DNA of 64,000 nucleotides from Biomphalaria pfeifferi (lineage: Eukaryota), in the NCBI GenBank assembly GCA_030265305.1, contig JASAOG010000080.1, positions 1,874,630 through 1,938,629 of the forward strand, read 5' to 3'. The translations under genes and the position numbers were made by a program. This document shows, in pieces, positions 18,373 to 56,564 of this stretch (the first letter of the stretch is position 1; every line of letters starts with the position of its first letter). The notes under the pieces are model-generated. The model made no database searches. It was not told the DNA's origin and saw only the letters and a program-made list of their open reading frames with translations.

Positions 18373-18570
18373 CAGTATTTAGAAATATTGCTTTAATACA
18401 ATCTTGATAAGTCTTCGTATCCTCGAGAAAATATTATAAATAAGGTGATCGGATAGGCTTGGTTTTTGTATGGTAACTACATTTATAGTCCTCCCCCACC
18501 CACCCACCACCAATTAGGCCTACGCTTTTTTTCTTTGGTTGTAATCTGTTCTTATTTGACTTTTCAGAAG

Positions 18571-19989
18571 ATGTCTATCCAGCGAGTACTGCTTCGATTA
18601 CTGAGATTTTCACTACCGATTCTTTTTGTATTTCTACTTCTGAGCGGGTCTTTTATTATTAGTTTTGTAAGAAACAAGCTTTGGGCCTTTCGACTTAAAA
18701 CGCCGTTGGTGCCATACAATGAACTGGAAAGGAGTCACGTTTCCAGGGAGCTCGTGCTGAAACAGTTCCAAAACGACATTGAAATTGTTTGGGCTCAGCG
18801 GGAAAGAGGGCCCAAGCTGAAAGACCACTGCTTGAAGTCAAAACTGGACGTCATTTGCACGGATGTTCAATACAATATAGACATTGCGCAAGGCATGGGG
18901 TTGTCTATCCCCGAGAGCAACGTGTCGATTTCAGGAAATATAACTGCCAACTATAAGGTTCTTCCACCCGTTTCCAATATTACGAAAATAGTTTCTTCGG
19001 TGAATCCTGGGTATTTACGGAAAAACCTGTGCTACAACGTTTCCAGAACTCGACAACTAGTGAAAAGGACAGTCGACGCAAACTTCTGTCCGCGTTTACT
19101 CAAACTCTTTGAAGACATCACAATAAAGGCTGAGCCGTATTTACTGCTTCTATTCACTTGGTGGCCTGACTACTTGGTGGACGTCGACAAGTTCAGCAGA
19201 AAGCTGCTACTGGAAAACTGCAAGCGGGTTCGACCATTCGTCAAAACCATCATCTTTACGGACAGCAGGATGACTATGGCTAACGCCAACGCCATGAACT
19301 TCACTTGTCTTCCGGTGCCGGATTACAGTTCTGGAGGCCTTCCAATTTTTCAAAATATGGCCAAGGTTGTGATGGAAAAGTTTAGCGCCACGTTTTACGG
19401 CTACGTCAAGGCCACAAGTGTATTCGACGCGTCCTTTCTAGAGTCACTCTTAGGCGTCAAAGAGATCCTAGTCAAGTCCTCGCAGAACGAAAAATCTAAA
19501 TCTAACCGATTTTCCAACTCAAAGCCTATCGCAATGTACGGGGAAGCCATGTATTACCAAAAGCTCAGTAGCGCTGCGGACTTGTACGAGCTTAACCTGC
19601 TGGCCTACACTAGAGGGAGCTACGAGTGGGAAAACCATCAGGCCTCTTTCGTTTATTTCGTGTTTACCAAGCAAGACATGTCAGACGTTCCACCTTTAAT
19701 CATCGACGACGACGCCCTGGTTCCGTTTTTGATAGAGCGTTCTAGAACGCTGGGCCACCTGGTGATAAACGTTGGCCGAACTGTAACAGCTCTGTACACA
19801 TCCCACAATGCCACCAGGTCAGAGTGGAACCGGAAGTACATTAAAGAGCTACCACGGGATTCACTTTACAACAAGAATCTCGCCATGAAGTATTTCAGTT
19901 CGAAAGTAATGAATAGTTCCCATGAATCTCATGATCTCTACAGCACATTCAACATAGATGGCAAAATTGTTTTTAAAGGATGGGCTTGA
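18571..19989 (+). CDS. Intronless ORF (472 aa from the first ATG) with predicted type II membrane topology and an N-glycosylation-site-rich luminal domain; family not recognised
   Basis: This is the longest ORF in the window, and the track starts it at a non-ATG TTG at 18466. From the first ATG it reads MSIQRVLLRLLRFSLPILFVFLLLSGSFIISFV... The N-terminus is a short basic cytoplasmic tail followed by one hydrophobic signal-anchor and then a large domain with many N-x-S/T sites (NVS, NIT, NVS, NFT, NAT) and acidic DxD-like motifs (VDVDKF, IIDDDAL). The region is clearly GC-richer than its AT-rich surroundings. It shows no RT, transposase or other TE signature. A ttttcag sits immediately 5' of the ATG, so an upstream non-coding exon is possible. 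Confidence 0.6.
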   Translation: MSIQRVLLRLLRFSLPILFVFLLLSGSFIISFVRNKLWAFRLKTPLVPYNELERSHVSRELVLKQFQNDIEIVWAQRERGPKLKDHCLKSKLDVICTDVQYNIDIAQGMGLSIPESNVSISGNITANYKVLPPVSNITKIVSSVNPGYLRKNLCYNVSRTRQLVKRTVDANFCPRLLKLFEDITIKAEPYLLLLFTWWPDYLVDVDKFSRKLLLENCKRVRPFVKTIIFTDSRMTMANANAMNFTCLPVPDYSSGGLPIFQNMAKVVMEKFSATFYGYVKATSVFDASFLESLLGVKEILVKSSQNEKSKSNRFSNSKPIAMYGEAMYYQKLSSAADLYELNLLAYTRGSYEWENHQASFVYFVFTKQDMSDVPPLIIDDDALVPFLIERSRTLGHLVINVGRTVTALYTSHNATRSEWNRKYIKELPRDSLYNKNLAMKYFSSKVMNSSHESHDLYSTFNIDGKIVFKGWA

Positions 19990-32947: not shown

Positions 32948-33295
32948 GATATTTATCTTATCTTATCTTATTTTATATAATACAGACGTTACTTCAAAAA
33001 GAAGATGATTACGTCCTACGGGTCATGCATATTAACCAATGACTTAAATTCTGCCAAGTCACTGGTTTTCCTGGCTAGCTCAGGCAACCCATTCCATGCC
33101 CTAATAACACTAGATAAGAAGGGGTATTTGTACAAATTTGTCCTAGCATATGGAACGAGGAATGTGTATTTTTTTTTTTTGTGTCTTTCAGAGTAATTTA
33201 TTAAATTTTGTTTTTGTATTTGAAGATTATGGTTCAGTGTTTTATGTATAATTGTTACTTTACTTTTAAGTCTTCTGTCCTGAAATACAAAAATG
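32948..33295 (-). mobile_element. CR1-like LINE 3'-terminal fragment, copy 2
   Basis: Same family as 17447-17762. It begins with (TCTTA)n on the plus strand, which is the 3' microsatellite tail on the minus strand. Confidence 0.75.
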
Positions 33296-33565
33296 AAAGG
33301 TAGGCATTATGCTGGCTACTTAACTTTTTGTTGGACCTCCAAGTGTAAAAAGGGGAAATTTATTTTCTAAAAACAATCTTACCCTTGATTTGTTAGCTAA
33401 AAGTACTCCATCAGAACAGGTCAATTTTTCTTAGGCCTGTATTAAGTAAACTCAAGCATCAGACCATGAGTGCAGTGGTGGCAAGACAGATGCCAAAGTA
33501 ACTCTTGATATCCATATATGATTAGTTTCATAGTTTGTTGCCACAGCTCAGTATGGGAGAAAAAA

Positions 33566-34075
33566 AAAAGAAGATGATTACATCCTACGGGTCATGCTTC
33601 TAGTCATGCATGTTAACCGATGACCAAAATTCTGACAAGTAACTAATTTTTCTGGCTGGATCAGGCGTCTCATATTATGCACTAATAGCACTAGAAAGAA
33701 GGAGCATTTGTACAAATTTGTTTGAATGTGCCTTTATCTTTGAGTCTTTCTGAGTATTTTTATTAGGTTTTGTTTTTATATTTGAAGGTTATGGTTCAGT
33801 GTTTTATGTAAAATTGCTACTTTACTTTTATGTCTTCTATTCTGAAGGTTTTCCAAATTTAGTGATTTTACTACAGGTGTTACTCTAGTCAAATGTGAAT
33901 ATTCGTTTGTGTTGAATCTTACTGTTCCATTTTGTGTCTGTTCCAGTTTCTTAATGTTTTCTTGAGTTGAGGATGCATGTTCTATTATTGGCCTAACCAA
34001 AGTTAAATAATATTTTAATTTTATGTTCTTATTTGATTTATAGAAACTTTTAAAAATAAACCATAATGCTTTGCT
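33566..34075 (-). mobile_element. CR1-like LINE 3'-terminal fragment, copy 3 (longer; encodes …TLVRPIIEHASS.QENIKKLEQTQNGTVRF.TNEYSHLTRVTPVVKSLNLENLQNRRHKSKVAIL…)
   Basis: Minus-strand ORF 33776-34123 carries the canonical CR1-clade ORF2 C-terminal motif. It abuts the L2 element on the plus strand. Confidence 0.78.
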
Positions 34076-36735
34076 TAGTTTAGCCAAATATGTAACAATA
34101 AGACCTGACAGCTCACCGTACACTACCTTTGAGATGTGCGAGTTTCACCTCTCCCACCACAGTAGAACACGGATTTTTATTGTCTTGTACCGCCCACCAC
34201 CAAGCAAGAGAAAAGTTTTCATCGAAGAATTTCAAAACCTTCTTGACAGTCACATAGCAACAAAAGATCTATTTGCCATAGACGATGTGAACTTGCATTT
34301 CGACTGTGAAAATGAGACATAAACGGTGTTACTGAAAAATGCACTAAAGGATCGCAACTTAGACCAACTGATAAACGTTCCAACACACGTCAAAGGTCAT
34401 ACTCTTGACTGGATTGTTACAAATGCAAGTGAACTTATAGCCAAACTCAATGTCTTATACCGTGGCTTGTCAGGTCATTTTCTTGTACACTTTGAAATGC
34501 GCCTATCAAAAACAAAAAGGCCAAGGAAAAACGTGACTTCACGTAAACTTAAAGCCATAGACATTGCCTCCTTTAAAATGGGCGTAACCTCTTTGCTGTT
34601 GCAACAGAGCAACACAGACGTTCTCAGCAATTACAGTTCTTGCTTGAAAAAGTTGCTGGATAGCCATGCAGCTTTTGTCACTCGTACAGTCTCAGTTAGG
34701 CCATCTGCACCCTGAATGACGGAAGACGTAAAGATTGCCCAAACTTATTCGCCGACGTGCCGAAAGTACATTTCAAAAGACAGGTCTGACGATACATCGA
34801 CAAATCTACATCCTAGAAAATAACAAGGTAAACCGCATGATTAGGGACGTAAAAGCTAGTCATATTCGACACAAAATCGAAACTTCTGATTCTTCAAAGG
34901 AGCTGTTTAGGATCACCGCTGAAATGTTAGGGGGAGCTAATAACGAACGTTTGCCGTCATCTATCCCAGCATCTGAACTCCCTGATTCCTTCAATAGATT
35001 CTTCATTGGCAAGATTGAACTGATTAGAAATGACATGTCATCCCTCTCATCACAGCTTGACCACTCTCCAATCTTTCAAAATTCTCCTTTTTGCGAGTTT
35101 CAGCGTGTCTCTGTAGATAATGTCAAAAGTATTATTTTAAAGATGGCAAATAAGTCATGTGACATTGATCCCATTCCAACTTCCTTGCTCCTTGAATGTT
35201 TAGATGAGCTTGTACCCACAATTACTAACATTGTGAACTCTTCACTGACTTCAGGCATTGTACCACATCAGTTTAAGCATGCACTTGTCAGGCCCTTATT
35301 AAAGAAATCCAGTCTTGAACCGGAATGTCTAAAAAAAAACTATCGCCCGGTATCAAATCTTCCCTTCCTGTCAAAGCGTCTGGATTACATCGTGTTAGCA
35401 CAAATTCTTTCTCATCTTGAACAGTACTGTCTCTTGGAAGAATTTCAATCTGCATATAGGAAGTGCCGCAGCGCAGACACAGCAGTGGTCAGGGTACTAA
35501 ACGACTTACTTCACAATTCCGACATGGGCCACATATCAATACTTTCCATGCTGGACTTGTCCGCAGCCTTTGATACGCTAGGCCATGAAATTATGATGGC
35601 CAGATTCTCTGCCCTTTTGGTTTAGCAGGAATAGTTTTAAAGTGGCTTACATCCTACCTGACTGAACGCACCCAAAGTGTCGTTGTTTATCAACAAGCTT
35701 ACTTTTGAAGTACGAAGTACCCCAAGGATCAGTTCTAGGCCCAGTACTGTTCACTATGTATACATATCCACTCAGCGGTGTCATACGGCCAATCGGCATC
35801 TTATACCACTTCTTTGCCGATGACTCACAGTTATACGATTCCTCAGTACCCTCAGAGGTGTCGCAACTGGCAGAGAAAATCAGTGGTACCGTTGCAAGGG
35901 TGAGCGATTGAATGGTTGAGAATAAACTCAAGATGAACGAAGACAAGACAGAAATAATTAAGATTGGCACTCGAAACAACGTCTCAAAAGTCGAGAGCAC
36001 AGATTCTCTTTTTATCACGAACTGCCAGATTCCTTTTGTCCATGTAGTGCGGAATTTTGGTATTTTCTTCGACTCAACACTATCCTTTAACCCACACATA
36101 AGTCAGCTCTGCAAGGGTCTTTATCTGCAGCTGCGCAAATTAGGCCGGATCCGACCATATTTAACAACGGAGTCAACAAACAAGCTAGCTGTGGCATTCA
36201 TACTTTCCCGCCTTGACTACTGCAACGCCGTGCTAGCAGGTATACCCGATGACAAAATAGAATAGCAATAGTCCTTAGAAAAACAAGACGAGATTCTGCT
36301 ACTACGCTCTTGCGCACTCTCCATTGGCTTTCCGTGAAAGCGAGAATCGATTACAAGGTGGCCACACTTAGTCATCAGTGTATATATAACAGTGAGATGC
36401 CCTTGTACCTTAGCGAACTAATCACTCCATATATCCCTCAGAGAGCCCTACGCTCAAAGGACTCATCGCTTCTAGTGGTGCCACGTTTCTCCCTCAAAAG
36501 ATACGGTCTTTTTCAGTGCACGGCCCAAAGGTTTGGAACTCACTCGCCATTGATTTCAGACAGACAGCATGCTCACTTCTTTCAAGAAGAACATTAAGAC
36601 CTACCTGTTTAAAACCTTTTTAGATTAATTTGTCGTTTTAGCTCTCGTGTTTGTAATGTTATTACAGCGCCTTGAGCCTACATTTTGTTTGTTAACAGCA
36701 CTTTATAAATAAACTTATTATTATTTTGTTTTTGA
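34076..36735 (+). mobile_element. L2-type LINE, 5'-truncated and frameshifted (distal APE endonuclease, reverse transcriptase, L2 C-terminal domain, 3'UTR)
   Basis: Successive ORFs in shifting frames carry VLYRPP..., PTHVKGHTLDWIVTN (EN), YRPVSNLPFLSKRLDYIV...QSAYRKCRSADTAV...LDLSAAFDTLGHEI (RT motifs), RNFGIFFDSTLSFNPHISQLCKG...LRKLGRIRPYL, and LHWLSVKARIDYKVATLSHQC...SLKRYG..TAQRFGTHSPL...FKKNIKTYLFKTF (the L2 tail). Confidence 0.8.
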
Positions 36736-42560: not shown

Positions 42561-42773
42561 TCATGCAGTTATGTCACTATGTACAGGGACAGACTTGGCA
42601 ACACTTGAGACGCTGGCCAGGATATCTTTTATACAACACTCCACCAGTGAGACATATTTTTTTCTCTCGTCTTCCAGGTTGTGGTAAGTGTGCACATACT
42701 CCTTAGCATTTTTGGTCAGAGTGACATAAGCATCTGGACACTGTGTCAGAGATTCAGCCTTCTCTATGAATTC
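42561..42773 (-). CDS. GLT1D1: GLT1D1 homolog, terminal coding exon (EFIEKAESLTQCPDAYVTLTKNAKEYVHTYHNLEDERKKYVSLVECCIKDILASVSSVAKSVPVHSDITA*)
   Basis: Minus-strand acceptor tgtttag|GAATTC. It aligns to the human GLT1D1 C-terminus [43 protein letters not shown]. Every codon was checked down to the TGA at 42561-42563. Confidence 0.85.
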   Translation of the reverse strand, partial: EFIEKAESLTQCPDAYVTLTKNAKEYVHTYHNLEDERKKYVSLVECCIKDILASVSSVAKSVPVHSDITA

Positions 42774-43245
42774 CTAAACATTGGCAAAAAAAAAAAAGAA
42801 AAATGCTCAGCAAACGTTAAAACATATTCAATAGATAAGAACATCTGTTAATGCCTGTATAGGTAATTCTATAAAAATAAAAGTAATCTATAGGGCAGAT
42901 GATGTAAAACAGGGTCGACAATGACGTCAAGGGGACAGCACAATAACTGACCACCTTTTATTGTCCAAATGTTAGGTTCCCATTAGAGATGGGTGGACTT
43001 GAGGGAGGGGGGGGGGGGGGGGGGGGGGGGGGCTTAAAATTTCAAAATTCCAGTCTTCACCAAGATTCAAACCAGAGTCCCCTTGGTTTGGAAAACTAGC
43101 ATCAGCCTCCATGTATTTAGATATCAATGCTTTATGTAGCTTATGCAGCAAAATAATGAAAAATGCTTAATCTAATTAATTACAATTTTTTGTTGTAAGA
43201 TCTATTTATACAAAATTAACTTTTATGACATTTGGATCCTGGTAC

Positions 43246-43344
43246 CTGAGGTGAATCATACAAAAGACCTGTGACTCCATCCTGTATTATTGCTTTATTG
43301 CCTGGTATATTTCTTGCAAGGACTGGTACACCGATGTGCATAGC
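43246..43344 (-). CDS. GLT1D1: GLT1D1 homolog, coding exon ([33 protein letters not shown])
   Basis: Acceptor ttttag|GCTATG and donor CCTCAG|gtacca. It is 99 nt in phase 0/0 and is near-identical in pattern to human [33 protein letters not shown]. Confidence 0.88.
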
Positions 43345-43699
43345 CTAAAATCCCAAAAGAATATAATATATAAATATACATGTTATGTTAATGAATGGAA
43401 TATACAGTACTGATCATTATACTGAAAAGTGAAATACTTGAAATAAATTTGGTTAAAAGATATTTCTAATTTCAAAATTTAACTGATAAAAATTGTAATC
43501 GATAAAAAAAAATTTAAATTATATATTAGGCCAATATAAATGAACAGTCTACTAAAAAGAAATAAATTGACTGCAACATACCCTATAAATAAATTAATTA
43601 AATTGACCAACTGTTTTTTTTTTTTTTTTTTTTTAGAAGCCAAGCACTTTACCACTCAGCCAATGTGCTTATGACAATGTTGAATGAAAAAAAAATCAC

Positions 43700-43820
43700 C
43701 TCAAGTATGGCTAGACACATCCCTTCACTATCTGAGGTATTGACTACAGCAAATGACTGTGACATGATGGCATGGGTGTCTTCCATTGGAAGTCCTGGAA
43801 TGTACACAACTCCTGGTCTC
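43700..43820 (-). CDS. GLT1D1: GLT1D1 homolog, coding exon ((x)RPGVVYIPGLPMEDTHAIMSQSFAVVNTSDSEGMCLAILE)
   Basis: Acceptor ttgcctcacag|G and donor CTTGAG|gtgatt. It matches human ...[40 protein letters not shown], which is the GT1 family C-terminal nucleotide-sugar binding region. Confidence 0.88.
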
Positions 43821-44947
43821 CTGTGAGGCAACAGTGACACAGGTTAAATATAGAGTGATAAGGATTACTTATATAAAAGTAAATGATAAACAGCTATACC
43901 TCAACTCTATATTTATACATAAATATTTATTTATATTATATTTATTATTTATTTATACACAAAAAAGCGTAATAAGTGTTTATGGGAAAATGTAAAAAAA
44001 ATTAATCCGGTTTGAAATGTAAGAGAAATTCCAAAAAACTAAAATATACATGTTGCTATTGGAGATGTAGGCTTACATCATGAATTATCACACACAAAAA
44101 AATCTAACAAATAAAAATATCAAAAAATCCTTTTTTCAAAAAACACATTAAAAGGGGGAAGAAGTCTGCGTTGAAAACTATATCTATCAATAATGTACGG
44201 GTTATTTCCCTTATTTGGTATTAATAAAAAAAAAATAATTACCAATAATTAATTGACTAATAGGGTGTTTTTCTTTCTTATTGATTAATGTTTTTTTTAG
44301 GTACAATAAATAGTGTTTAAAGTATCAACTTGATTGGAAAATGGGTGAGGGAGAAATAGCCTTAATTATTTAAGGGGACAAAACACAAATTTAGCCAAAT
44401 CTGAATACTGAAGGATTAGTTTCACTTGTTAGTACAAATATAATTAATTACAAGTAATTAATTGACTAATTGGTTACTTTTTATTTTATTGATTCATGTC
44501 TTGTCTATGCCAATGATTAATTGATCAAAGCTTCAAAATGATTCCAGAATGGTTGTGGGAGAAATAACGTGTTCACACTTTTTACCAGACAAACAGACAG
44601 AGTTAGTTGATTTAGGCTTTGTGAAAATTGCTGAACTTTGAAGTGTAAAACTAATATTTACTTGTTTACAGCTGGTTCAAACACAGTAGAACAGTAGTGT
44701 TCATCTAACTGAAAATGTAATAGTCTTATTTAGTGTAATGAAATGTATAAAAAGTTTTCTATAAAATATTTTCAAAATGAAATTACAAAACAAAATCAAC
44801 AACAGCACTCTGACAAGATCACAAGTACTAATAGATCATGATTTTTTTAAATGAATTAGTTAACCAACACCAGCAAATAATCTAGGTGAATACATAGTCT
44901 TCTATGACAAGAAGCAATGTAAATATGATGTTCCACAGTTTGACAAA

Positions 44948-44998
44948 CCTTTGGTCCCACAATCAGCAACAAAATTCTTTTATCTCTTGCATGCCATT
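44948..44998 (-). CDS. GLT1D1: GLT1D1 homolog, coding exon ((E)WHARDKRILLLIVGPK…); 3' boundary unresolved
   Basis: Acceptor ccttacag|AATGGCATG joins the previous exon as FQ-EWH and matches human SEWHQEEPNVHLVIVGPE. No candidate donor (CCAAAG|gtttgt, or later GT sites down to about 44855) gives the phase-2 exit that the next exon requires, unless a 47-nt micro-intron and a 35-nt mini-exon are invoked. The end coordinate is therefore approximate. Confidence 0.5.
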
Positions 44999-45585
44999 CT
45001 GTAAGGTGATAAACAAAATGTTTATGGGTTAAAATAAAACAAAGAATATAATATAGATATGACTTTTAGTGTTACGTGCACAGCATAGTGGGAATGTGGA
45101 ATGAAGCGAATGCGTATTGGAAGAGAAGGATCCAAATATGGAGTAATGTAAACAAGGTTATTATTGACATATTATTATTTGTTGAATCAAGATTACAGTC
45201 CTCATAATCTACTTTAGGTGAGTATGCTTGGTGTATGATTAAGAGTCTCATCTGCTCGCAACAATTAGTAATATCAGATGTAGTTATGGTGTATATTAAC
45301 ATGAATATTTTTTCTTTGAAGGAACATCTGTAACTTATAAAATAATTTAATAATATTTAAATAAAAAGTCAAGCTCCAATAAGGGAGTTAACAATAATAG
45401 AGAGATTAAAGATGGTGTTTGCAGAAAAAATAGTATAAAAAACTGAAAGGAAAAATAAGTATGTAATTGTTGAGTTGTTGTTAAATAAAGACTGCATAAT
45501 TTCAATCCAAGGACTTTACTTGCTACCTAAAAATAACACTAGAGACTATGCATGAGGGAGAAATTGGGGGGGGGGGGGGGTGCAC

Positions 45586-46012
45586 TGGCTGAGTGGTTAA
45601 GCGCTTGGCTTCCAAACCTGGAGGTCCTAGGTTCTAATTTCGGTGAAGACTGGAATTTTGAATTTCTAGATTTTTAGGGCGCCCGAGTCCATCCAACTCT
45701 GATGGTCCCTGACTTTAGTTGGGGAAAGTAAAGGCGGTTGTTCGCTATGCTGGCCACTTGACACCCTGATCGTTAAATGTTTGATAAAGAAACTGATGAC
45801 CTTAACACCATCACCCCTATAGACCGAACAGGCTGAAAGAGGAACTTTACTATAAAAGGAGGTGTGGTGGCTGAGAGGTAAAGTGCTTGGTTTCCAAACC
45901 TGGGTTCAATTCTTGTGAAGACTGGGAAATTTAATTTCGGGATCTTTGGGCACCTCTGAGTCCACAGTATTTTACCCTCAGGAATCCCCAAACAAGTTGG
46001 CCTTATAATTTA
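45586..46012 (+). mobile_element. Two tandemly adjacent SINE family A copies (a full copy followed by a head-only partial copy), preceded by a G14 run
   Basis: 45586-45860 and 45862-46012 both begin with the tRNA-like head GG(T/A)GG(C/T)TGAG(T/A)GGTTAAG.GCTTGG.TTCCAAACCTGG. They lie inside a GLT1D1 intron on the opposite strand. Confidence 0.72.
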
Positions 46013-46013
46013 C

Positions 46014-46178
46014 CTTGAAAAGTAGGAATTAGGTAAGTTGAGTTCTTCACTGGCCTAATTCCTCCAATCAATGAGAAGACTACAGGTTTTTGAAATGAAG
46101 AGGTCATCAGACTATTGACTTCTGGTTGACTGAACAAGTAACTCATCAAGTTGAAACTAGACACACAGGTATGGACAG
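46014..46178 (-). CDS. GLT1D1: GLT1D1 homolog, coding exon ((A)VHTCVSSFNLMSYLFSQPEVNSLMTSSFQKPVVFSLIGGIRPVKNSTYLIPTFQ)
   Basis: Acceptor gctgtacag|CT and donor TTTCAAG|gtaaat. It is 165 nt, with 54 codons counted, and it aligns to human [50 protein letters not shown]. It is flanked by SINE copies within the intron. Confidence 0.82.
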
Positions 46179-46934
46179 CTGTACAGCATCAACAATAAAA
46201 TATAAGTTTCTTTTTGGATTATCTCTAAAAAAAAAAGCCTTCAAAGTAAAATAAAGTAACAGTAATCACCACTAAAATGTGATTTTAATGTTTGAAAACG
46301 GGTCAATGTTCAAGTGTAAGTCAATAATTAAGATAAGACAAAACTCATTGTTCAAGACAATGAAAGCTAAAGATTGAAAATGTGTGTGCGTGTGTTATAA
46401 AGTAAGGGAGATCACTATAAATTTTAAATGTGATTCTTTCTTTCCTTGGAAGTGTTCTTATGAAAAACATCATTCAAACTCTGTGGTAGATAGGAGTCAC
46501 AAGCTTAACCACTGTTATAAAACTCTGGCGGGAAGCCATTAAAAAACTAGCAAGAGACTGTGGAGAGTGGCGTGTTTCTACTGAGGTTCTAAGAGGAACG
46601 CAAAGGAAAGATGATGATGATAGCAATCTGGCAGTCTCAGAGCAAATCACAAGACCAGTTAAGCCACCCAGCTAACCCCACCATAAGAAAAACAAATAAA
46701 ATAACATGAAAAAAAATAAGTTCAACTCTTTATCTATTAGTTGCATTCATATGCAGCAAGATTAGTTAACATCTAACTAACACAGTAAAGAAACTAAAGA
46801 ATGAAGTGTTTTTATAATAACATCCAGATGTCTACTAAAAGTGAAGCAAAGAAAGTAAAAAAACAGAAGATTTGAGACACAACAAAGCCAGCTCAACAGA
46901 AAGAATACTGGTAACATGTTGAGTCATAAGTCTG

Positions 46935-47026
46935 TCCCACTCACCTTGTGGAATGAGGGCAAGTTTGGACAGTGAGATATTTGGCCATAGCGCTAGAGCC
47001 TTGTCTTGTATAGTTGAACTAAAACA
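46935..47026 (-). CDS. GLT1D1: GLT1D1 homolog, coding exon ((K)FVVCFSSTIQDKALALWPNISLSKLALIPQ(G))
   Basis: Acceptor ctaaag|G and donor CCACAAG|gtgagtgg. It matches human (R)[30 protein letters not shown]. Confidence 0.82.
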
Positions 47027-47253
47027 CACCACAAACCTTTAGTTAAAGAATAAAATATTGTAACATTGAGTTAAGAAACAAACATGATAAAAAAAATAAA
47101 TTAAAATGAAGTTCTGAATCTATTTTGTAATAGAACATCAACTATCTTCCAGTTTTAAAAAAATCTGATATTTTTTTAAAGCAAATGTTGTATATCCTTT
47201 AATAAATAAAATTAAAGAACATTCAACCCAAAAAGAATATTTATAGCCAGTGA

Positions 47254-47437
47254 CGTAGTTAGGGATTTTTAGGCCTGGGGGGCTTGACCTCTTTAAAGGC
47301 TCCTGCATTTTGACATTGGTTATCATTACATGAGATAATGGCATAATATTTAATGTAAAAAACAATTTCGGACACTCATTTGGGTTCATGGGGATTTTCA
47401 AATTTGGACCTCCCCTAACCCTAGCTAAAGCAATGTT
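47254..47437. mobile_element. hAT-like MITE, copy 2 (flanked by TTTATAGC direct repeats)
   Basis: Same family as 25643-25838 (tagggatttttaggcc...aaatgagtgtccgaaattgtttttacattaaatatt...). An 8-bp TSD is visible on both flanks. It lies inside a GLT1D1 intron. Confidence 0.6.
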
Positions 47438-47629
47438 TATAGCATACAATATCCCATAATTCCTACAGAGATATATGAACTGATCTTCCCACAATCAACA
47501 GCTTTCTAAACTGCTAGCCTCACAACCAGCCAGCAGTGGACATAATGCCGCTATGCACTGCAACAATGTACAACCAATTGACCACATGGACATCTAAATT
47601 TTCTACAACAAACAATCCACTCTTCTCAC

Positions 47630-47735
47630 TTGGCTTTTGTGATCACCTCAGTCATGATGTCAAGGGAGTGGGAGTCTTTGCTGAACTCATTGATGTCTGT
47701 GCCGCCAAGGATGACGATGTAAGGCAGGTTACTCG
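47630..47735 (-). CDS. GLT1D1: GLT1D1 homolog, coding exon ((A)SNLPYIVILGGTDINEFSKDSHSLDIMTEVITKA)
   Basis: Acceptor tgtttccag|CG and donor GCCAA|gtgaga. It matches human [33 protein letters not shown]. Confidence 0.82.
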
Positions 47736-48839
47736 CTGGAAACAAACGATCACATGATTAATTCCAGTCCAAAAATGTGCCAATAAAAGTAGCCCACAAC
47801 TTACATGACTCAGTTTCACAAAGAAGGAAATAGGGAAGGAATAATAAAAAAATATGGGCCATAAGTGGACAACTAATGGCCGAAGTCTGCCAGTGAAATA
47901 TGAAGAAAAAATAAAATAAAGATGGCTAATCAATGATAGTGCATTTTTGGAGCAAGATCTATTTGCGATTATTTGACCTGCTCTATAAAAAAGATACATT
48001 TTAGGATCAAGGTCTAACTGTAGTTATGCAATCTACCTATTGCCAATATCTGATAATAGTCAGTTGAAATGGCTTGAGTAGATAGAAGGTGTTTTTTTTT
48101 TACATGCAGAATCTCACTGCAAGAAGACAGAGCTTTGGAAGTATACAATGAGATCGGAGCAGTTTTTGGTGGTATATTACAAAATGCTATTTACTATTCA
48201 ATTGATTGGCATTTGTACAAAAATAGAGTTCATCCATCATTCATGATATGATGATGACCACTTTGGTCATCCAGGAGGCTAAGGACTTTGCACTACAGTA
48301 TTATGTCTCTTTGTTGGCTGGTGAGATCTATGTGATTGTTAGTCTGCCCACTGGATAGGCTATTCCAGCCTGTGTCAATTGCCTTGATTGTCTTCTCTGG
48401 TGCTTTTCTGAGGATTTACTTACCATTGAAATAGGAAATTATTTTTTAAATTACTTTTTAGGTTTTATTTCTGTATTTGTAAGTTTATTTCAATCTTATT
48501 ATTAAAAGTTTGTTACTTTGCTTTTTATTTTTCTTGAATGATTTTGTTTCCAATTTACAAGATTCTACTAATCATGTCAATACACTACATGGTTCATACA
48601 ACTTTTGTGAAAATGAATTCCAGACATTTTCCAGACATTAATCTATGTTTTCCAGACTCACTAACAGTAAAATGCATATCTACCTGAGCTTGTGGTATGC
48701 GCTCTGGACTGTAATATTCATGGTCTTGGGTTCAAACCCTACTTAGAACTAACCCCTGCGTCCTGCAGTGGGAGGTGTTTCAACTAGGATGTAATGATAA
48801 TCTTCAATTCTGAAGGAACATCCAAAACATGTTTTAAAA

Positions 48840-50350
48840 AAAGTCACTAATCTTGCAGCACCTAGACTTAGGCAACTCAATAATATATAGATCTAGTTAG
48901 TATATAGCCTAATAGAGCTAACTTAGTTGTAAAATCTATTTCTAAATCCCAAAGAATTTTTATATAGATTTTCAGTGGCTTAAACATTAGATACTGGTTA
49001 AAATGCAAAGAATTAGTCTTAGACTTCAGGTCTATCAAGCCTAGGTAGGTTAATTACCTCTAGTCGAGTCTAGTATAATTCTTTTGGAAGAGATAGCCTA
49101 AAGATCTAGAATCTAGCGAGTTACTGTATTGAAATTTAATGTGTAATAGTGGACTACTTGTCTTATATCTAGATCTAGTTCCCAATCATAATATGTCAAT
49201 ATTCAATATTGATTTGATTGTGTTTTTTAACTGTATAAATATTGATATCTAGTCTAGATCTAAACTAAATTAAATGTATATCATACTACTAATACTAGAT
49301 TATCTACTATAATCTGTATTCTAATTTAAGAATGCTAGATCTAAATCAGAACCTAGATCAAGACAAAATCTAGTAGGGTGACGTAGTTAGGGATTTTTAG
49401 GCCTGGGGGGCTTGACCTCTTTAAAGGCCCCTGCATTTTGACATTCGTTATCATGACATGAGATAATGGCATAATATTTAATGTAAAAAACAATTTCGGA
49501 CACTCATTTGGGGGCCCCCTCCAGTGGGGGTCATGGGGATTTTCAAATTTGGACCTAGTCTTTTAGTTTTTAAGTTTAGACTCAAGATCTACATGCCTAA
49601 TATAAATATAACTTCCCGACTCACGTTAACAAATTCAAGCGTCCATTAATATTAGTGTCTAGAACTTTAAATCTAAACATTTCTAATTCGATAATCATTA
49701 GATTAGTTTTGGATTTAGATCTAGAAAGTAGTCTAATAACTAATTCCAGACAATGAATTGTAAATCTAAATATAAAACAAATCTAGTTAAAATAGATTTT
49801 CTAGATCCAGAATCCAAGCTGCACATAGGTCTAAACGTTTTTTTTTTTGTTTTTTTTTGTAATTTGCTCTAAGCATCAGATTTTGTTTCAACTTTGAAAA
49901 AGTTTCATTGACCTTGAGTCTAGACCTAGGTGCTAGACCTAGCGTTATAATAACTACATTGATTTTAAATAACTTAGACATATAATCTAGCCTAATCGCT
50001 AGTGAATGTCGTGGATTCATGTTTCGTTTTTTTTTGTATAGAATACTAGATCTAGAACTAGAATATATGTAGATCTAGCGAAAGTCTGTATTAAAATTAA
50101 TTAAAGCTTCCTTAGCCGCGAATTGGTTCTGGATTAGATCTAGACTCTATATCTATATAGAAAGTTTGATTGATCATGGCCATGGGTGTGCTCTGCAATC
50201 GACTGAATGACCAGTTGTTTTATTTTCAAAAAATGAAAGCCGTGATCGCGCGTGCTTTCAACCATGACATATATATAGATCTAATAATCTAGCCCCTATG
50301 TCCAACTAGATCTACCCATCTAGCGTTTTACCGGTCCACATTTTTTTATG
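48840..50350. repeat. CTAG-palindrome-rich low-complexity tract (dense TCTAGA / AGATCT / CTAGATCTAG words) inside a GLT1D1 intron. Similar tracts lie at 890-1400, 12540-13220, 62000-62120 and 63190-63440
   Basis: Words such as tagatctag, ctagatcta and ctagtag are visibly over-represented on an AT-rich background. The tract carries local hairpins, for example the perfect 11-bp-stem palindrome CCCTAGCGGGC-ccta-GCCCGCTAGGG near 1080-1110. Confidence 0.55.
49383..49555. mobile_element. hAT-like MITE, copy 3 (partial)
   Basis: Near-identical to 47254-47437 over about 170 bp. It sits in the CTAG-rich part of the GLT1D1 intron. Confidence 0.55.
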
Positions 50351-50553
50351 ACATCGGATTTTTAATTTTTGTTTTCAAATTCCAGACTTTTCCCAGACAT
50401 TTAAAAAATCGCCTAGAAAAGTAGCGATTTACCAGATTTTTCCAGGTCTGAAATTTTATTTTTGAAACTCCAGACTTTCCAGACTGCGTACAAACCCTGA
50501 CACTAGCAATATATCATTGTCTAAACCCAATTGACAGCAGATCAACAACTCAC

Positions 50554-50702
50554 CTTTCATAAAAGCTCCAGTTCTAAGAGCATGTATTCCGATCAGTATT
50601 CCAATATTATCTTCATCCACCATGCGAACAAACTCATCATGGTTCTGAAACAGTTTAGGGTCCTCCAGATGGCACTTGTAGCCAATAGACTTGAGATGAT
50701 TT
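50554..50702 (-). CDS. GLT1D1: GLT1D1 homolog, coding exon ((x)NHLKSIGYKCHLEDPKLFQNHDEFVRMVDEDNIGILIGIHALRTGAFMK(G)); the most 5' exon identified
   Basis: Acceptor ttgtgtctatag|A and donor ATGAAAG|gtgagt. It matches human (R)[51 protein letters not shown]. The N-terminal exon, expected to carry M...TGN..TA, was not located. The region immediately upstream is occupied by I/R1-like LINE fragments. Confidence 0.8.
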
Positions 50703-51740
50703 CTATAGACACAAGGGAAGAAACAAATCAGACACAAGGAAATAGAATAAGAACACATGCTTGCAAGCTAAAAATAAGGATGAGCGAGTTTTGCCCTTGT
50801 GGAGCATAATCAGAGAATGCTGACCATGACTTTAAAAGCTGCATACTCTATCAAGAGGTCTGAAGAAGACACCTGACCCAAAAATCCCCCTACAGAACAA
50901 AAACTATATGGAGAATTGCCAGATCTGGAAACCACAGCACAGGTAATCGCAGATATAAGAGTACTCATCTGAACCCTCTAACATAAAAATGAAGAAGAAG
51001 ACACAATAAATGAAACAAATCTCCCAGACAGCTATGTTTATAATTAGAGAGACTTGTTACAAAAAGCAAAACAAAGCAAAAACCTTCACACCCAAAAATT
51101 TCTATAGTTGATAAAAGAAAAACTGGCCCAGAAATGTATTTTTCACATGAAAGCAATAATAAGATACTGATATGTTGTGTGAATTGTAGAAAAAAAGATG
51201 AATATATTAAATTTTAACTTTTTTTTTCTTTTGTTGTTGAAAGAATAAAACAAGCTCTATTAAAATTTGTATGTAATGTTGTTTCAATCAGAAATTCTTT
51301 TAAAATTATTTTGCTCTTTCCACTTAAGCAATTTCATTCTATCAATTATCTTTATTTAGCTAAAATACTTAATTTACAGTTACAAATGTTACCTGTACTT
51401 CTTTTACCTTATTCTTTTGATTGTACAATAGTTCCCTCCCCTCTTGGCAAGGGGAGACAACAAAATCAATGTGTGAGGCATTCCTCTTGGAAATCTGGAC
51501 AGAAAATGTCATGGTTAGTCTGCAGTGACACAAACACAAATACTTTCTGTTTGAATGTTAAACTATTTTTTTTAAAACCTGGTCAGTTTTCAGCAAATTT
51601 TAATCTGCCGCTCACAGTCCAATCACAACGTTCATTGCACACCATGGTCAGAAATTGATTCATGAGCTACTTTAGGGCCATCAGAACTTGGGAAATTAAC
51701 ACACCGACATCACCTTTGCATTTATAGAATTTGTGGGAGA

Positions 51741-51995
51741 AAGACTTCGATCTCCCTGATACTGATTAAGTTTTCCTTTCACACCTTGCAATCTATAGGC
51801 AGATGACGTAAAGGTCATCTGTTTCTGTGGTCCACGGTTAACAAAGGGTGTCATGTGGCCAGCACAATAAACAACCACCTTTAATTTTCCCCAACTAATG
51901 TCAGGTACTGATTAGAGCTGGGTGGATTGAGAGCCACCCAAAGATCCCGAATATAAAAATCCCAGTCTTCACTAGGGTTTGAACCCGGGAAAACA
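51741..51995 (-). mobile_element. SINE family A copy (minus orientation). A further copy lies at 52942-53243 (-)
   Basis: Matches the family A consensus (gcagatgacgtaaaggtcatctg...gtgtcatgtggccagcacaa...ccaactaatgtcaggtac...). Confidence 0.7.
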
Positions 51996-52099
51996 ATATC
52001 AGCGGTAGGTGTCCAAATAAACAAAATGGTATGAGGCCGGAATAACAAAAACACAACAACATGAAGCCCCCCCCCCCCCCTAGAGTTTAGAATAAATGA

Positions 52100-52440
52100 A
52101 AATTGGACCAGCTCACATCCCAATTACAAGAAAAAGGATACCCCTATTATAAGCTATCTCGACATGACCAACGCATAATTTTTCGACTCAGAACCGAACA
52201 CACCGGAATGAGACAACATATGTTCCAGAAGCTAAAAGTCGGGACAAGTGAAACCTGCCCTTGTGACGCATCATCAGAGAATGCTGACCATGTCTTTCAA
52301 AGCTATATCAAGATCAAGAGGCCCACAGCCCTCCTATAGAAGAAAAACTATACAGAGTACTGCTTGATCTGGAAACCACTGCGTGGTTCATCTCAGATAC
52401 ATGATTACTGATCTGAACCCCCGACATGTAAAATGAGAAC
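52100..52440 (+). mobile_element. Non-LTR retrotransposon fragment (post-RNase H CCHC region: …IFRLRTEHTGMRQHMFQKLKVGTSETCPCDASSENADHVFQSY…). A diverged duplicate lies at 50711-50990 (+)
   Basis: ORF 52103-52339 is duplicated as a diverged copy at 50711-50990 (…RIRTHACKLKIRMSEFCPCGA…). It belongs to the same domain class as the 2138-2398 (-) copy. Both sit in the upstream region and intron of GLT1D1. Confidence 0.55.
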
Positions 52441-53959
52441 GAAGAAGAATAAGTCATTTGGTAAACGAGCAGGACAATTCATTATGATCAGATTACAGTA
52501 CAATTTATTAACATTTACAAGCTCACTTCTCCTTTGTTTACCCCTGTCAGACGGATTAACCGACCGCAACTCGTAAATAAAATCTTTAACGCTCGATCTG
52601 ACATTAAACACTGTTAATTGATTTAGGATTAACTTGGACATAGAACAAGACTCGATAAAATAATACCACATCAATGGTAAAGACCAAGTGGACAGAAAGT
52701 ACAAAAAGATTACAAAAAAAAAAAAAAAACAACAAAAAAACAACAACATCGAATCGCGTTCTTTTGATTTTAGAGGCCGGAAGGGGAAAAGCTGTTGTTA
52801 GTTTTGTGTGGTCCATCCGTCCCATTTAGATCACAGAAACTAGATACTGATATCACAATATAGTAGATCTTGCAGTGTTCTGGCACAACGTACACCTTTT
52901 TTTTAATTAACAAACTACAAGAAAGTAAGTTTTTATAATTCTTGTCAACGGGGCATGAGTTCGAATCCTACCATGTAGGGCAGATAATGTTGAGGTCATC
53001 TGTTTCTTTAAAAGAAGTTCCCCTTTCAGTCCTTGCAATCTATAAGGCAGATGATGTAAAGGTCACATGTGGCCAACACAATGACCAACCACCTTTACTT
53101 TTCCTCAACTAATGTCAGGTACCCATTAGGCGCCTTAAAAATCCCGAAAAGCAAAATACAAGTCTTAACGAGATTCGAACCTAGAAGCCCAGGTTCAGAA
53201 GAAAAGCGCTTTACCACTCAGCCACCGTGCTGCATGATAATTAGAAAAAAAAAAGAAATATTTTAATATGCTATATATATTTTCTAATACTTATAATAGT
53301 TAAACTTTGAACACCTACAAAACTGCTCAAGTTTTTTTTTTTGGAGGGGAGGGGGTAACAGGGATTTAGCAAAGGCTTCGGCAAATCAAGTGAAATTAAA
53401 AGGGCTAGACAGCACTTCGGAACAGAACACGTACTTATAGAAAGGGAGAGGTGTCAGTGTGGGACTGAAGCCCACTAAACAACAATGTGAAGCTTATCTT
53501 AAATCAAAGATGGGCTATTGTCTGTAGGTATAAACACGTGCATTCAATGTTGGCTCAATTCTCCATTACCATTTGATCCCGCTCTGTAGAAACTAATCCC
53601 ATTACTTTCAACGTCCTCGTTCCTTCTTCACTGGCGATTCGCAAAGCCCAATACAAAGACAAACCAAGAGCACGTGGAATTATTGATGTAGTCAAAGGCA
53701 AAGTCAGTCAAACAAAATAATAGTTTATACCGCATCTCCCCCTCCCAGCCCTTTGTTTTTTGTCCGAAGTTAAAAACAAATAATGATGCCCAATTCAAAT
53801 ACAAATAGATCACGTGAGCTAATGATCTACCAGTATAACGCTGAAGTTCAAGACACGCAACAGGTGGAAATCTATACATACAAGTATCACAATGAGCTGG
53901 CGATGGGGAGGAGGTCTCAACGTTAGCTCAACGGAGGGAAACTGTTTGAAAGGATGAGC

Positions 53960-54010
53960 CTGATATGGTCACAGGTTGAAAAGCGAGATCTCGGCCAATG
54001 TTCGGCGGCG
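53960..54010 (-). promoter_or_regulatory. CpG-containing patch with a CCAAT box (on the minus strand: …CGCGCCGCCGAACATTGGCCGAGATCTCGC…), candidate promoter-proximal element for the GLT1D1 homolog. Speculative
   Basis: It is one of the few CpG-dense stretches in an otherwise CpG-poor window. It carries CCAAT in the minus orientation and lies about 3.3 kb upstream of the most 5' GLT1D1 exon found. This placement is inference only. Confidence 0.15.
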
Positions 54011-56564
54011 CGGTTTAAAAAAAAAGCGTCTTTGCCCATGTAATATATCCAACTGCTTAACAGTAATTACATTTCAATAAAAGCAGCGTGCTTTTCGCGG
54101 ATTATTAGTACTGTATAACAGGATTACAAAGAGAGTTCGTGTGGAAACACAAACTCAGTAACGTCCCAGGGCAGATTTCAATATTTTCAACAGTAATATC
54201 AGAAATCATTAACACAAACTATCAATAACTACAGCCCATCGTCAGTCCATACAAAATAGACGTGTATAGCGAAAGTGTTACCGCATATATACATAATGCT
54301 AGAAATATTATTACATTGTTAATATTCATATGTATTCAATGAAATGATTGTTATGAACATATTGTTCAGGGTGAACCTGGCGGATGTTTTATAAATATCG
54401 AACGAGTAGCAGAAAGGCACACAAAAAGACTATTATGATAAGTAGCAATAATACATACAACACCAAATCAGCGTTAGTCATACTGTAAGTTCTAATATAC
54501 TGCAAGGGACTTATGGACAAGCAAAAAACAAAACAAAAAAGATTGGGGGAACTATGTCCGTACTTTGTGGAGAAACAAAACTAATACAAAAGATATAAGG
54601 GGGACAAACACATTAGCAATGACGAAGAAAATATTCGTTGTACAGAGAAACTGTGGCGACACTGCAGACACAAAACTATGACAGTATAGACAGTATGGAG
54701 AGGGCCTCACAAACTAACCTAACAGTTGGTGAATCATGAACAAGTGTAATACTCAGCTACATTGAGGTACAAAAGAAAGAGAAAAGGTTTGTATTTAAGA
54801 ACAATTAAAACTGATTTGATTAATTAATTAATTAATAAGCAAATGTATTGGATGGCTGCCTAGTCGTGCGGTTTGTGCGCTGGACTGTCGTTTGGATGTA
54901 TCGATGGTCCCGGGTTCAAACCCTGCCCGCTCCCATCCCCCATCGTCCTGCGGGAGGTTTGGACTAGGAAGTAAACTATCTTTAACTCTGAAGAAACATC
55001 CGAAACATGTACAACGTACAACAAACATTTTATTAAAGATAACTAAACAAATTACAGTGTAAGGGATGTCAAAAAAAAACAACAAAAAAACAACAACACA
55101 AAACAACTAAATACGACCCAGAGGTCAATGGAAGTCTACCCACCAACAGTAACAGGTTATTTAAAATGTAATTGACACCAGACGCCAATGAGACTGTATT
55201 GGTTTCAAAAGTTGTTTTTTTTTTTTCCCAACGTTGTCCTAAAATATTTTAATAATTAATGAATTTTTGTAGCTTGTAGCGAAGTTTCAAATTAAACAAA
55301 CAAACAACAAAAGCTAAGAAGTTTAAATACAGACACTCAGCCTGCACCCCACTCGCCCACCACCCCAAAAAAATGTTTGTTTTTACTATACCATCATACA
55401 TTATGATATCTGCCTAGGGCTTGCCGCCCCTAATGCGCTGGAGGATCTAAGTAAGTCAGTAAGATACAAACCTATGAGAAACAATCTGAAACTCGTCCAT
55501 TGTTCGTTCTATTATCGAAATTCGTCTACAAGTAAAACAAAATTACAGATCAGGAACTCGATCTAGAAGTAACATTATGTAATCCTTAGAAACCCCCAAG
55601 CAGTTTTTGGCTCAAAAGTCACTACGTCATACGTGGGAAATAATACATTTTTAAAAACACATTATGGTGTGAGAAATAAACACGCACATATATATGTATA
55701 AGATCAACAAGAGTGTCAAGTTCAGGTTAAACCGGGACACTTTTAATCGACGTGTAGTTGGCCTATCAGAATAAGCGTCACGAGTCAGCGACTTCTGCCA
55801 ACCGACCGAACTTGGCGAGGATCTTAGAATATGGGCTACTTTTATTAGCCTGCGTGTTGAACTTCGGTCACCGCTGAAGGGGATCTAAATAACTTGACAC
55901 GAGGTCACGCTTAGCTGACACCGACCTCTATAATTCGGCCTAATATTTATACAGAGAGAAAAAAAAAATAAAGGGCTATCATTGCAACAAATCTCTGATT
56001 TGACCGAAAATATAGATTGAAACTATGAGGAAATAAAAGCTTTAAGAGATTCGTATCAAAATTTTTTTTTTCAATTGAAAAGTGTGGTTCTATGTTTTGC
56101 TCGTCTTATGCTCCTGATTCAAAGATAAGCTTAGTAGACCTAAGTTTGTGTCCAGTAGCCTGTCAAGTTCAGTTGTTTAACCTTCATTATGTCGGTGAAG
56201 TAACCAAAACTTAAAAGTCTTGAAATATCCACTTCAAAAACAAAACAAGAAAAACCAAGTGGAGACTATTTGACGGGACAAAGTAATGCAGTGTTTCTCA
56301 ATTTATTACCAGTGACGACCCTTCTTAGCCAGCCTAGGGAGCTCTGTAGGCTCCCACAGTGGAGTTTGGGAAGTTTTAAAGAATATAACTAAAAAGAAAA
56401 GAATCTATTATTATAAAACAATTTTATCTTTTTTTTTTTCATATATATAAGTACAATAAGTTTGGACTAGAATTTGGTGATTTAATATCATTAAACCTCT
56501 ACTCCATTAGTTCTTTTGTCGTAGAAATCTTCAAAGTGGTTTTGTATACAAGAAAAGGTTTTTA

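Follow-up and report, generated by a model that had tools for sequence, protein, structure and literature searches.

The closest described relatives of the gene analysed here are the GLT1D1 proteins of Biomphalaria snails. GenBank entry KAK0054165.1 is the glycosyltransferase 1 domain-containing protein 1-like isoform X1 of Biomphalaria pfeifferi, and RNA-seq data and PASA transcript alignments went into the annotation of this species (PMC10075465). The corresponding isoform X1 of the GLT1D1-like protein of Biomphalaria glabrata (XP_013062194.2 / KAK6967565.1) is encoded at a locus designated L001. Vertebrate GLT1D1 proteins (Papio, human) are colinear with the snail protein over the full length, with an identity of about 36%, and the human protein reportedly glycosylates PD-L1 (PMC7191186). 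The G-N..T..R, GGTD, and EX7E motifs are present in both vertebrate and snail proteins, whereas an N-terminal extension of 13 residues, derived from an extra 5' coding exon and the start of exon 2 (E2), is found in the snail only, and the C-terminal tail of the snail protein is longer. The bacterial retaining glycosyltransferases of the GT4 family BshA (5d00/2jjm), MshA (3c4q), and SenB (8jjq) have the GT-B fold with two Rossmann domains in common with snail GLT1D1, but the sequence identity is just 15–18%.

We analysed a 64,000-nucleotide stretch of B. pfeifferi DNA (contig JASAOG010000080.1), referred to as the window. A complete GLT1D1 orthologue was located by tblastn with orthologous proteins on the minus strand at positions 42561–55500 (Table 1). 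The gene model contains 11 coding exons with consistent phases and introns that are all of the GT-AG type. The joined exons form a stop-free open reading frame of 1158 nt encoding 385 residues, and the coding sequence spans 12.9 kb of the genome. The translation is identical to KAK0054165.1 at 385/385 positions, and thus there is no difference from the deposited protein. None of the repeat intervals overlaps a GLT1D1 exon. As judged from sequence, the region almost certainly holds an intact, functional Biomphalaria GLT1D1 orthologue with 11 coding exons, the 385-residue product of which would be a GT-B (GT4-type) glycosyltransferase. The locus is an ordinary gene with repeat-rich introns and a product that is already in GenBank, and the biological import of this conserved glycosyltransferase gene is small.

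The original prediction described a GLT1D1 homologue with eight colinear exons, and these exons were recovered on the minus strand by tblastn with orthologues. The boundaries predicted for E3 (50554–50702) and the end of the coding sequence at 42561 are both exact, and the part of the gene said to exceed 8 kb, from E3 to E11, measures 8142 bp. This part contains nine coding exons instead of the eight counted previously, because E8 (44662–44708) was overlooked, and E1 is located outside the interval 42561–54010 to which the prediction applied. E8 is a necessary component of the model, since the phases of E7 and E9 do not match without it. The E8 peptide LDEHYCSTVFEPAVN followed by K was aligned by tblastn with an E-value of 9e-6 and an identity of 16/17.

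Table 1. Coding exons of GLT1D1, intron repeats, and CpG-rich regions (positions in the window)
Feature	Position	Strand	Description
E1, first coding exon	55472-55500	-	ATG 55498-55500; MDEFQIVSH plus AG; donor GT
E2	51408-51494	-	(R)FPRGMPHTLILLSPLAKRGGNYCTIKRI plus AG; acceptor AG, donor GT; phase 2 at both ends
E3, first exon of earlier reading	50554-50702	-	acceptor in phase 2; tblastn, splice sites
E4	47630-47735	-	tblastn with orthologues, splice sites
E5	46945-47036	-	tblastn with orthologues, splice sites
E6	46014-46178	-	acceptor is upstream ACAG, giving AVHTCVSSF...
E7	44949-44998	-	tblastn with orthologues, splice sites
E8, internal 47-nt exon (LDEHYCSTVFEPAVNK)	44662-44708	-	tblastn, phase
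E9	43700-43820	-	carries first Glu of EX7E motif
E10	43246-43344	-	tblastn with orthologues, splice sites
E11, last coding exon	42561-42773	-	stop TGA 42561-42563
LINE 3' tail fragment 1	50729-51009	+	intron 2, antisense to gene; degenerate ORF2 C-terminal Cys/His, stops
LINE 3' tail fragment 2	52100-52460	+	intron 1, antisense to gene
Putatively tRNA-derived SINE copy	51768-51989	-	intron 1; seven-copy family alignment
SINE copy	53015-53243	-	intron 1
SINE copy	45586-45851	+	intron 6; partial copy beside, 45853-45965
Partial SINE fragment	42926-43032	-	intron 10; then 30-nt G run
Non-autonomous hAT-like DNA element, 1912 bp	48588-50499		intron 3; ends CAGGGTTTGTAC and GTATGAACCATG
CpG-rich patch (earlier CpG/CCAAT patch)	53900-54199		intron 1; CpG o/e 1.27-1.39
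CpG-rich region directly upstream of E1 ATG	55501-56000		CpG o/e 1.1-1.3

The 5' exon that the original prediction had failed to locate is E2, which was identified by tblastn with an E-value of 2e-14. The aligned residues (30/30) are all identical in B. glabrata and in Bulinus truncatus. The exon is positioned 705 bp upstream of E3 and is flanked by the two LINE fragments. E2 encodes the segment GGNYCTIKR and thereby holds the N-terminal G-N..T..R motif (G30/N31/T34/R37) of metazoan GLT1D1. In an alignment of 33 metazoan orthologues, no variation occurs at G30, and at least 90% of the sequences conserve N31, T34, and R37. An exon upstream of E3 had been forecast to end with two nucleotides, AG, and its discovery in this phase had been named as the observation that would resolve the question of the missing first exon; E2 ends in AG, which settles the matter. 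The suggestion that the exon was missing or displaced, or that the gene was truncated at its 5' end, thus does not hold. The exon seemed to be missing only because exons of such small size (87, 29, and 47 nt) are difficult to spot by eye amid repeats. The general lesson is that exons of 29–87 nt situated between repeat fragments are easily overlooked by visual inspection, and that the proteins of close relatives should be checked before an apparent 5' truncation is ascribed to disruption by a transposable element.

The gene of B. glabrata that encodes isoform X1 is likewise divided into these 11 exons, whose lengths and splice dinucleotides agree with those of B. pfeifferi. The proteins of the two species align without gaps, with an identity of 97.9–98.2% (7–8 amino-acid substitutions). 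The coding sequences are 98.4% identical, in comparison with about 75–95% for the introns; the identity is 86/87 nt in E2 and 149/149 nt in E3. The coding differences comprise 10 synonymous and 8 non-synonymous changes, which correspond to a dN/dS of 0.225, a value based on 18 substitutions only. A GLT1D1 gene cut short at its 5' end by a transposable element, or a pseudogene, might be envisaged from the LINE fragments on either side of E2, one of which adjoins the E3 acceptor region, and from the 1.9-kb element located 54 bp from the E3 donor. However, the open reading frame is complete, the splice sites are all canonical, and the LINE fragments predate the separation of two species in both of which the gene is intact. 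We therefore assign a negligible probability to truncation or pseudogenization, and reject both on the basis of the exon structure shared with B. glabrata, the higher identity of the coding sequence than of the introns, and the low dN/dS.

The proposal that the first exon lies beyond both LINE fragments fails for E2, which is between them, but is correct for E1. The peptide encoded by E1 is identical to the N-terminus of the B. glabrata protein at 10/11 residues in a tblastn alignment, and the exon is identical at 28/29 nt. The E1 ATG is preceded by an in-frame stop 14 codons upstream, with no ATG between them, and it has A at position -3 and G at position +4. The N-terminal pattern MD(E)F..IS.RF is common to the independently annotated proteins of Bulinus and Lymnaea, and is looser in that of Physella. 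The E1 ATG, which is the annotated start, is a candidate for the dominant start codon. It is not proven as such, because residues 1–10, encoded by E1, are modelled with low confidence (pLDDT 55) in the AlphaFold2 structure of the B. glabrata protein, which is 98% identical, and because most metazoan orthologues begin at a methionine aligned with M14. The latter is the ancestral methionine, encoded inside E2 by the ATG at 51479–51481, and it corresponds exactly to the start of the 371-residue RefSeq isoform X2 of B. glabrata.

These same features of the orthologues, of isoform X2, and of the predicted structure lend some weight to an arrangement in which the main protein starts at M14, E1 is a 5' untranslated or minor-isoform exon, and transcription may begin at an alternative promoter, for example at 53.9–54.2 kb, where the CpG observed/expected ratio reaches 1.3–1.4. 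We consider this arrangement rather unlikely, given the sharing of the E1 peptide among snail genera, the good context of its ATG after an in-frame stop, and the near-identity of the exon in B. glabrata. Furthermore, the CpG-rich patch of intron 1 has an identity of 91% to B. glabrata, equal to the intron average, and it does not stand out in a sliding-window comparison of intron 1 of the two species. No site matching the donor consensus at 8/9 or more positions emerged from a scan of positions 51495–56200, but the scan is uninformative because the true donor of E1 (TAG|GTTTGT) is also weak. The choice between the two methionines bears only on which isoform is used, and either is consistent with the gene being intact.

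The same patch had been put forward as the possible location of the coding first exon, near positions 53960–54010, because it is rich in CpG and one of its strands has a CCAAT box. The GLT1D1 orthologues of four snails gave no tblastn alignment there at E < 1, and all 385 residues are accounted for elsewhere, which makes a coding exon at this position very improbable. A non-coding alternative first exon at the patch would fall under the rather unlikely arrangement described above. The sequence that immediately precedes the E1 ATG is likely to represent the core promoter and 5' untranslated region of GLT1D1, as suggested by its CpG enrichment and by the 92–96% identity of positions 55500–55900 to B. 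glabrata. The intron 1 patch may act as an alternative promoter giving a transcript that lacks E1 and starts at M14, comparable to the 371-residue isoform X2; separately, the hAT-like insertion may have altered the efficiency of splicing relative to B. glabrata. Taken jointly, these two conjectures are quite unlikely.

The assignment of the protein to its family is consistent across searches. The best homology match is from Biomphalaria (E = 2e-208), vertebrate proteins are matched with E-values of about 1e-55 at 92–95% coverage, and each of the best 120 matches with a source name is a GLT1D1 or a glycosyltransferase family 1 protein. The Pfam domain Glycos_transf_1 (PF00534) covers residues 184–340 with a score of 78 bits, relative to the cutoff of 26.4 (E = 8e-22). 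The EX7E motif is contained in the sequence SEGMCLAILE of the C-terminal domain, its residues E274 and E282 occupy invariant alignment columns, and the junction of E9 and E10 falls within it. From these sequence features, snail GLT1D1 is a predicted glycosyltransferase encoded by a conserved gene of the housekeeping type. According to the AlphaFold2 model (mean pLDDT of 90.6), the protein has the GT-B architecture with two Rossmann-like domains. E2 encodes strand 1 (residues 15–22), the glycine loop, and helix 1 (residues 30–43) of the model. The N-terminal Rossmann domain would thus start in exon 2, and the C-terminal Glycos_transf_1 domain would bear the EX7E motif. The top Foldseek matches to the model are GT4 enzymes, among them BshA, MshA, TreT, and SenB, with TM-scores of about 0.7; those of the bacterial GT4 enzymes range from 0.63 to 0.73, with a probability of 1.00, and the profile match has an E-value of 7e-15.

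The introns are rich in debris of LINEs, SINEs, and DNA transposons, and the SINEs, LINE tail, and CTAG-rich tract predicted in them are all present. The description of the introns as saturated with transposable elements goes further than the evidence: repeats make up at least 38% of intron bases in the whole gene and at least 45% in the part from E3 to E11, where both values are lower bounds obtained from evidence within the window. The introns have gathered ordinary repeat debris, namely two 5'-truncated antisense LINE tails, SINEs, and a hAT-like element, and the exons and splice sites are untouched.

The two LINE-like fragments, originally placed at 50711–50990 and 52100–52440, are real. 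They are 70.7% identical to each other over 246 nt (50765–51009 and 52229–52452), and both encode a degenerate ORF2 tail (RLRTGH...C.C...H...C) that matches P0127, an intact LINE-type C-terminal open reading frame, with E-values of 2e-19 and 2e-8; fragment 2 is 49% identical to it. The fragments represent about 250–360 bp of the 3' tail, without the reverse transcriptase, of a putative I/R1-like clade. The 5'-truncated end of fragment 1 is the one next to the E3 acceptor region. Pfam gave one sub-cutoff DUF6901 match and nothing meaningful for the LINE fragments, and a Pfam scan of selected open reading frames of the gene region detected no transposable-element domains. The sole match to the LINE-tail peptide in a homology search was one ENA protein of 146 residues, which gives no clade. 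Both LINE tails occupy orthologous intron positions in B. glabrata (L001 15318–15555 for fragment 1 and 13761–14107 for fragment 2), which indicates that they are older than the split of the two species.

The SINE copies belong to a putatively tRNA-derived family; in reverse complement, the consensus of seven copies reads ...TnGCTGAGnGGT...AGGTTCnAATC, and contains A-box-like and B-box-like motifs. Neither ARAGORN nor Rfam matched the SINE head in the region, and the head is thus too degenerate to be recognized by either tool. When introns 4, 6, and 8 were scanned for the inverted repeats of MITE termini, only low-complexity matches were obtained, and the predicted hAT-like MITEs other than the element of intron 3 are putative.

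The locus provides a clean, small case of the turnover of transposable elements in introns, seen here in a pair of schistosome vectors: the LINE tails are present in both snails, and the hAT-like insertion is species-specific, with an empty site that can be identified. Introns 1, 3, and 8 of B. glabrata contain additional sequence, of which a third LINE tail is part. The 1.9-kb hAT-like element of intron 3 is missing in that species; in B. pfeifferi it follows the E3 donor at a distance of 54 bp. The criterion used for hAT elements was a target-site duplication of 8 bp and short terminal inverted repeats starting with CAG. The terminal repeats CAGGGTTTGTAC and CATGGTTCATAC agree at 9 of 12 positions, and the duplication around the element is perfect over 6 bp only (TAGTGT), or 6/8 if taken as 8 bp. 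The insertion is supported by the empty site of B. glabrata, which has a single TAGTAT. No transposase is present in the element, which contains nested repeats and subterminal TCTGGAAA repeats. The CTAG-rich tract is located within it, with about 19 CTAG per kb in comparison with the window mean of 3.9 per kb.

The GLT1D1 gene of the Biomphalaria pfeifferi window is intact, conserved, and already annotated. The window as a whole consists of AT-rich eukaryotic sequence. The eight colinear minus-strand exons of the original prediction were recovered by tblastn with a human GLT1D1 query, taken as a lead only, and again with database orthologues. Inspection of the splice sites showed that the predicted coordinates of exon E3 were exact. 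The acceptor of E3 (TATAG/A) is in phase 2, and the upstream exon therefore has to end with two nucleotides. The stop codon of the coding sequence, TGA, occupies 42561-42563. With these eight exons only, no in-frame splicing is possible: E7 ends in phase 0, and E9 starts in phase 2. The best database match of the concatenated eight-exon peptide is Biomphalaria glabrata GLT1D1-like isoform X1 (385 aa, E = 2e-208), followed by proteins from Bulinus, Lymnaea, and Physella, and then by GLT1D1 from across Metazoa. Compared to the eight-exon peptide, the orthologues contain 38 residues ahead of E3 and 16 additional residues in the middle of the protein.

Searches with snail orthologue proteins placed three further exons, E1, E2, and E8, in the window (Table). 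E2 has a CAG acceptor, and its 3' end reads ATA AG/GTAAAAG, so that its last two nucleotides, AG, and the initial base of E3 together make up an arginine codon. The original prediction had named as decisive a first exon in this phase, ending in AG or CG, and E2 is such an exon. The 5' exon, which was thought to be missing or displaced, is thus present as E1 and E2, identified by tblastn and splice phases; its apparent loss arose from the unaided reading of short exons amid repeats.

Coordinates of features in the window and in the orthologous B. glabrata locus (L001)
Feature	Position	Strand	Description
E1	55472-55500	minus	MDEFQIVSHRF; 10/11 identical (tblastn)
E2	51408-51494	minus	RFPRGMPHTLILLSPLAKRGGNYCTIKRIR; 30/30 identical to B. 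glabrata and Bulinus, E = 2e-14 (tblastn)
E3	50554-50702	minus	
E8	44662-44708	minus	LDEHYCSTVFEPAVNK; 16/17 identical (tblastn)
hAT-like element	48588-50499		1912 bp, intron 3
LINE tail 1	about 50729-51009	plus	antisense to GLT1D1
LINE tail 2	about 52100-52460	plus	antisense to GLT1D1
CpG-rich stretch	55.5-56.0 kb		directly upstream of E1
CpG/CCAAT patch	53.9-54.2 kb		CpG-rich, inside intron 1
Extra B. glabrata segment, intron 1	L001 12633-13290		no counterpart at window ~52870
Extra B. glabrata segment, intron 3	L001 16367-16574		no counterpart at window ~48010
Extra B. glabrata segment, intron 8	L001 20343-21670		no counterpart at window ~44370
Run of 30 G	43003-43032		poly-C in gene sense, intron 10
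507-aa ORF	18466-19989	plus	uninterrupted
228-aa ORF	4568-5254	plus	Pfam DUF383, E = 5e-29
Larger LINE piece	34735-35625	plus	
Larger LINE piece	2765-3313	minus	
Weak LINE-tail match	2126-2338		just downstream of YTDGS ORF
Il2rg-matching gene	L001 29127-33600	minus	syntenic window region about 33000-36000

All eleven exons have AG/GT boundaries and consistent phases, and together form a 1158-nt ORF of 385 codons without internal stops. The translation matches GenBank KAK0054165.1, the GLT1D1-like isoform X1 of B. pfeifferi, at 385 of 385 positions, and aligns gap-free with the B. glabrata protein at 97.9% identity. The B. pfeifferi annotation was made with RNA-seq and transcript alignments (PMC10075465). 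The B. glabrata locus contains the same eleven exons, with identical lengths and matching splice dinucleotides, which when spliced translate exactly to the GLT1D1-like protein P0001. The coding sequences of the two species are 98.4% identical, and the surrounding introns mostly 75-95%. The 10 synonymous and 8 non-synonymous differences give a dN/dS of 0.225, the direction of which is clear despite the small numbers and argues for a functional gene. Truncation of the 5' end by a transposable element (TE), or decay into a pseudogene, had been considered; both are rejected in view of the complete, conserved ORF with eleven canonical exons, together with the dN/dS.

The protein matches Pfam Glycos_transf_1 (E = 8e-22). 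Across 33 aligned metazoan orthologues, Gly30 and the EX7E glutamates Glu274 and Glu282 are invariant, and Asn31, Thr34, and Arg37 are at least 90% conserved; Gly30, Asn31, Thr34, and Arg37 are all encoded by E2. In the AlphaFold2 model of the B. glabrata protein, which is 98% identical to the window product (mean pLDDT 90.6), E2 encodes strand 15-22 and helix 30-43, and is thus predicted to provide the N-terminal Rossmann domain with its first strand, Gly loop, and first helix. The predicted fold resembles the GT4 enzymes BshA, MshA, TreT, and SenB (Foldseek, TM about 0.7), in accord with a profile search of PDB sequences. The selenosugar synthase SenB (8jjn/8jjq/8fbx) matches GLT1D1 in profile and predicted fold about as well as BshA, and this likeness could be a lead to the GLT1D1 substrate.

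Most orthologues start with the methionine aligned to Met14, the ATG of which (51479-51481) is inside E2, and RefSeq B. glabrata isoform X2 (371 aa) starts at the equivalent residue. E1 and the beginning of E2 encode a 13-residue extension that is common to the Bulinus and Lymnaea proteins and looser in that of Physella. The ATG of E1 is flanked by A at -3 and G at +4, and is preceded by an in-frame stop with no ATG in between. Residues 1-10 of the AlphaFold2 model have low confidence. Both the E1 ATG and Met14 may be used as starts. The CpG/CCAAT patch, near which a coding first exon had been proposed, exhibits no GLT1D1 coding similarity in tblastn with orthologue proteins, and no unusual conservation relative to B. 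glabrata was found there.

The repeats described previously were largely verified, including two LINE fragments, putative SINEs, and the CTAG-rich tract, which lies within a hAT-like element; the I/R1 clade label was not confirmed. Both LINE fragments (70.7% identical to each other) correspond to the C-terminal Cys/His tail of ORF2, interrupted by stops and frameshifts, with the encoded end EKLYG.L.DLETTA.FI, and match the intact 146-aa database tail P0127. Both occupy orthologous positions in B. glabrata and are therefore older than the species split, and E2 has persisted between them. The putative SINE family (roughly 200-260 bp) is represented by four copies within the gene and by others in the rest of the window. 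Its consensus, when reverse-complemented, contains A-box-like and B-box-like motifs, and ARAGORN and Rfam searches of the region did not recognise it. The run of 30 G follows immediately after a partial SINE fragment.

The hAT-like element has the ends CAGGGTTTGTAC and GTATGAACCATG, subterminal repeats TCTGGAAA, and a flanking TAGTGT duplication. It is inserted just 54 bp beyond the E3 donor, on the downstream side, and is specific to the species of the window: the corresponding B. glabrata site is cleanly empty, with one TAGTAT (L001 15789-15792). The extra B. glabrata segment in intron 3 carries a third LINE tail (L001 16412-16576). The presence of extra sequence in each species indicates turnover of intron repeats in both lineages. 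Of the 11.8 kb of intron, repeats constitute at least 38%, and 45% in the E3-E11 part, a lower bound counting only repeats demonstrable from the window itself; none of these intervals overlaps any of the eleven exons. These figures justify calling the introns TE-rich, but not "TE-saturated".

Elsewhere in the window, the 507-aa ORF is located where the GC content rises locally to 44%. The N-terminal segment of its product is hydrophobic, Pfam gave no match, and the ORF may be an intronless gene. The DUF383 ORF probably represents one exon of a conserved gene next to GLT1D1 or elsewhere nearby. One of the two larger LINE pieces is a reverse transcriptase fragment (Pfam RVT_1, E = 7e-8), and the other is an ORF without a Pfam match, in which a YTDGS motif resembling that of RNase H was read by eye. 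The gene downstream of GLT1D1 in B. glabrata has a Pfam Il2rg match.
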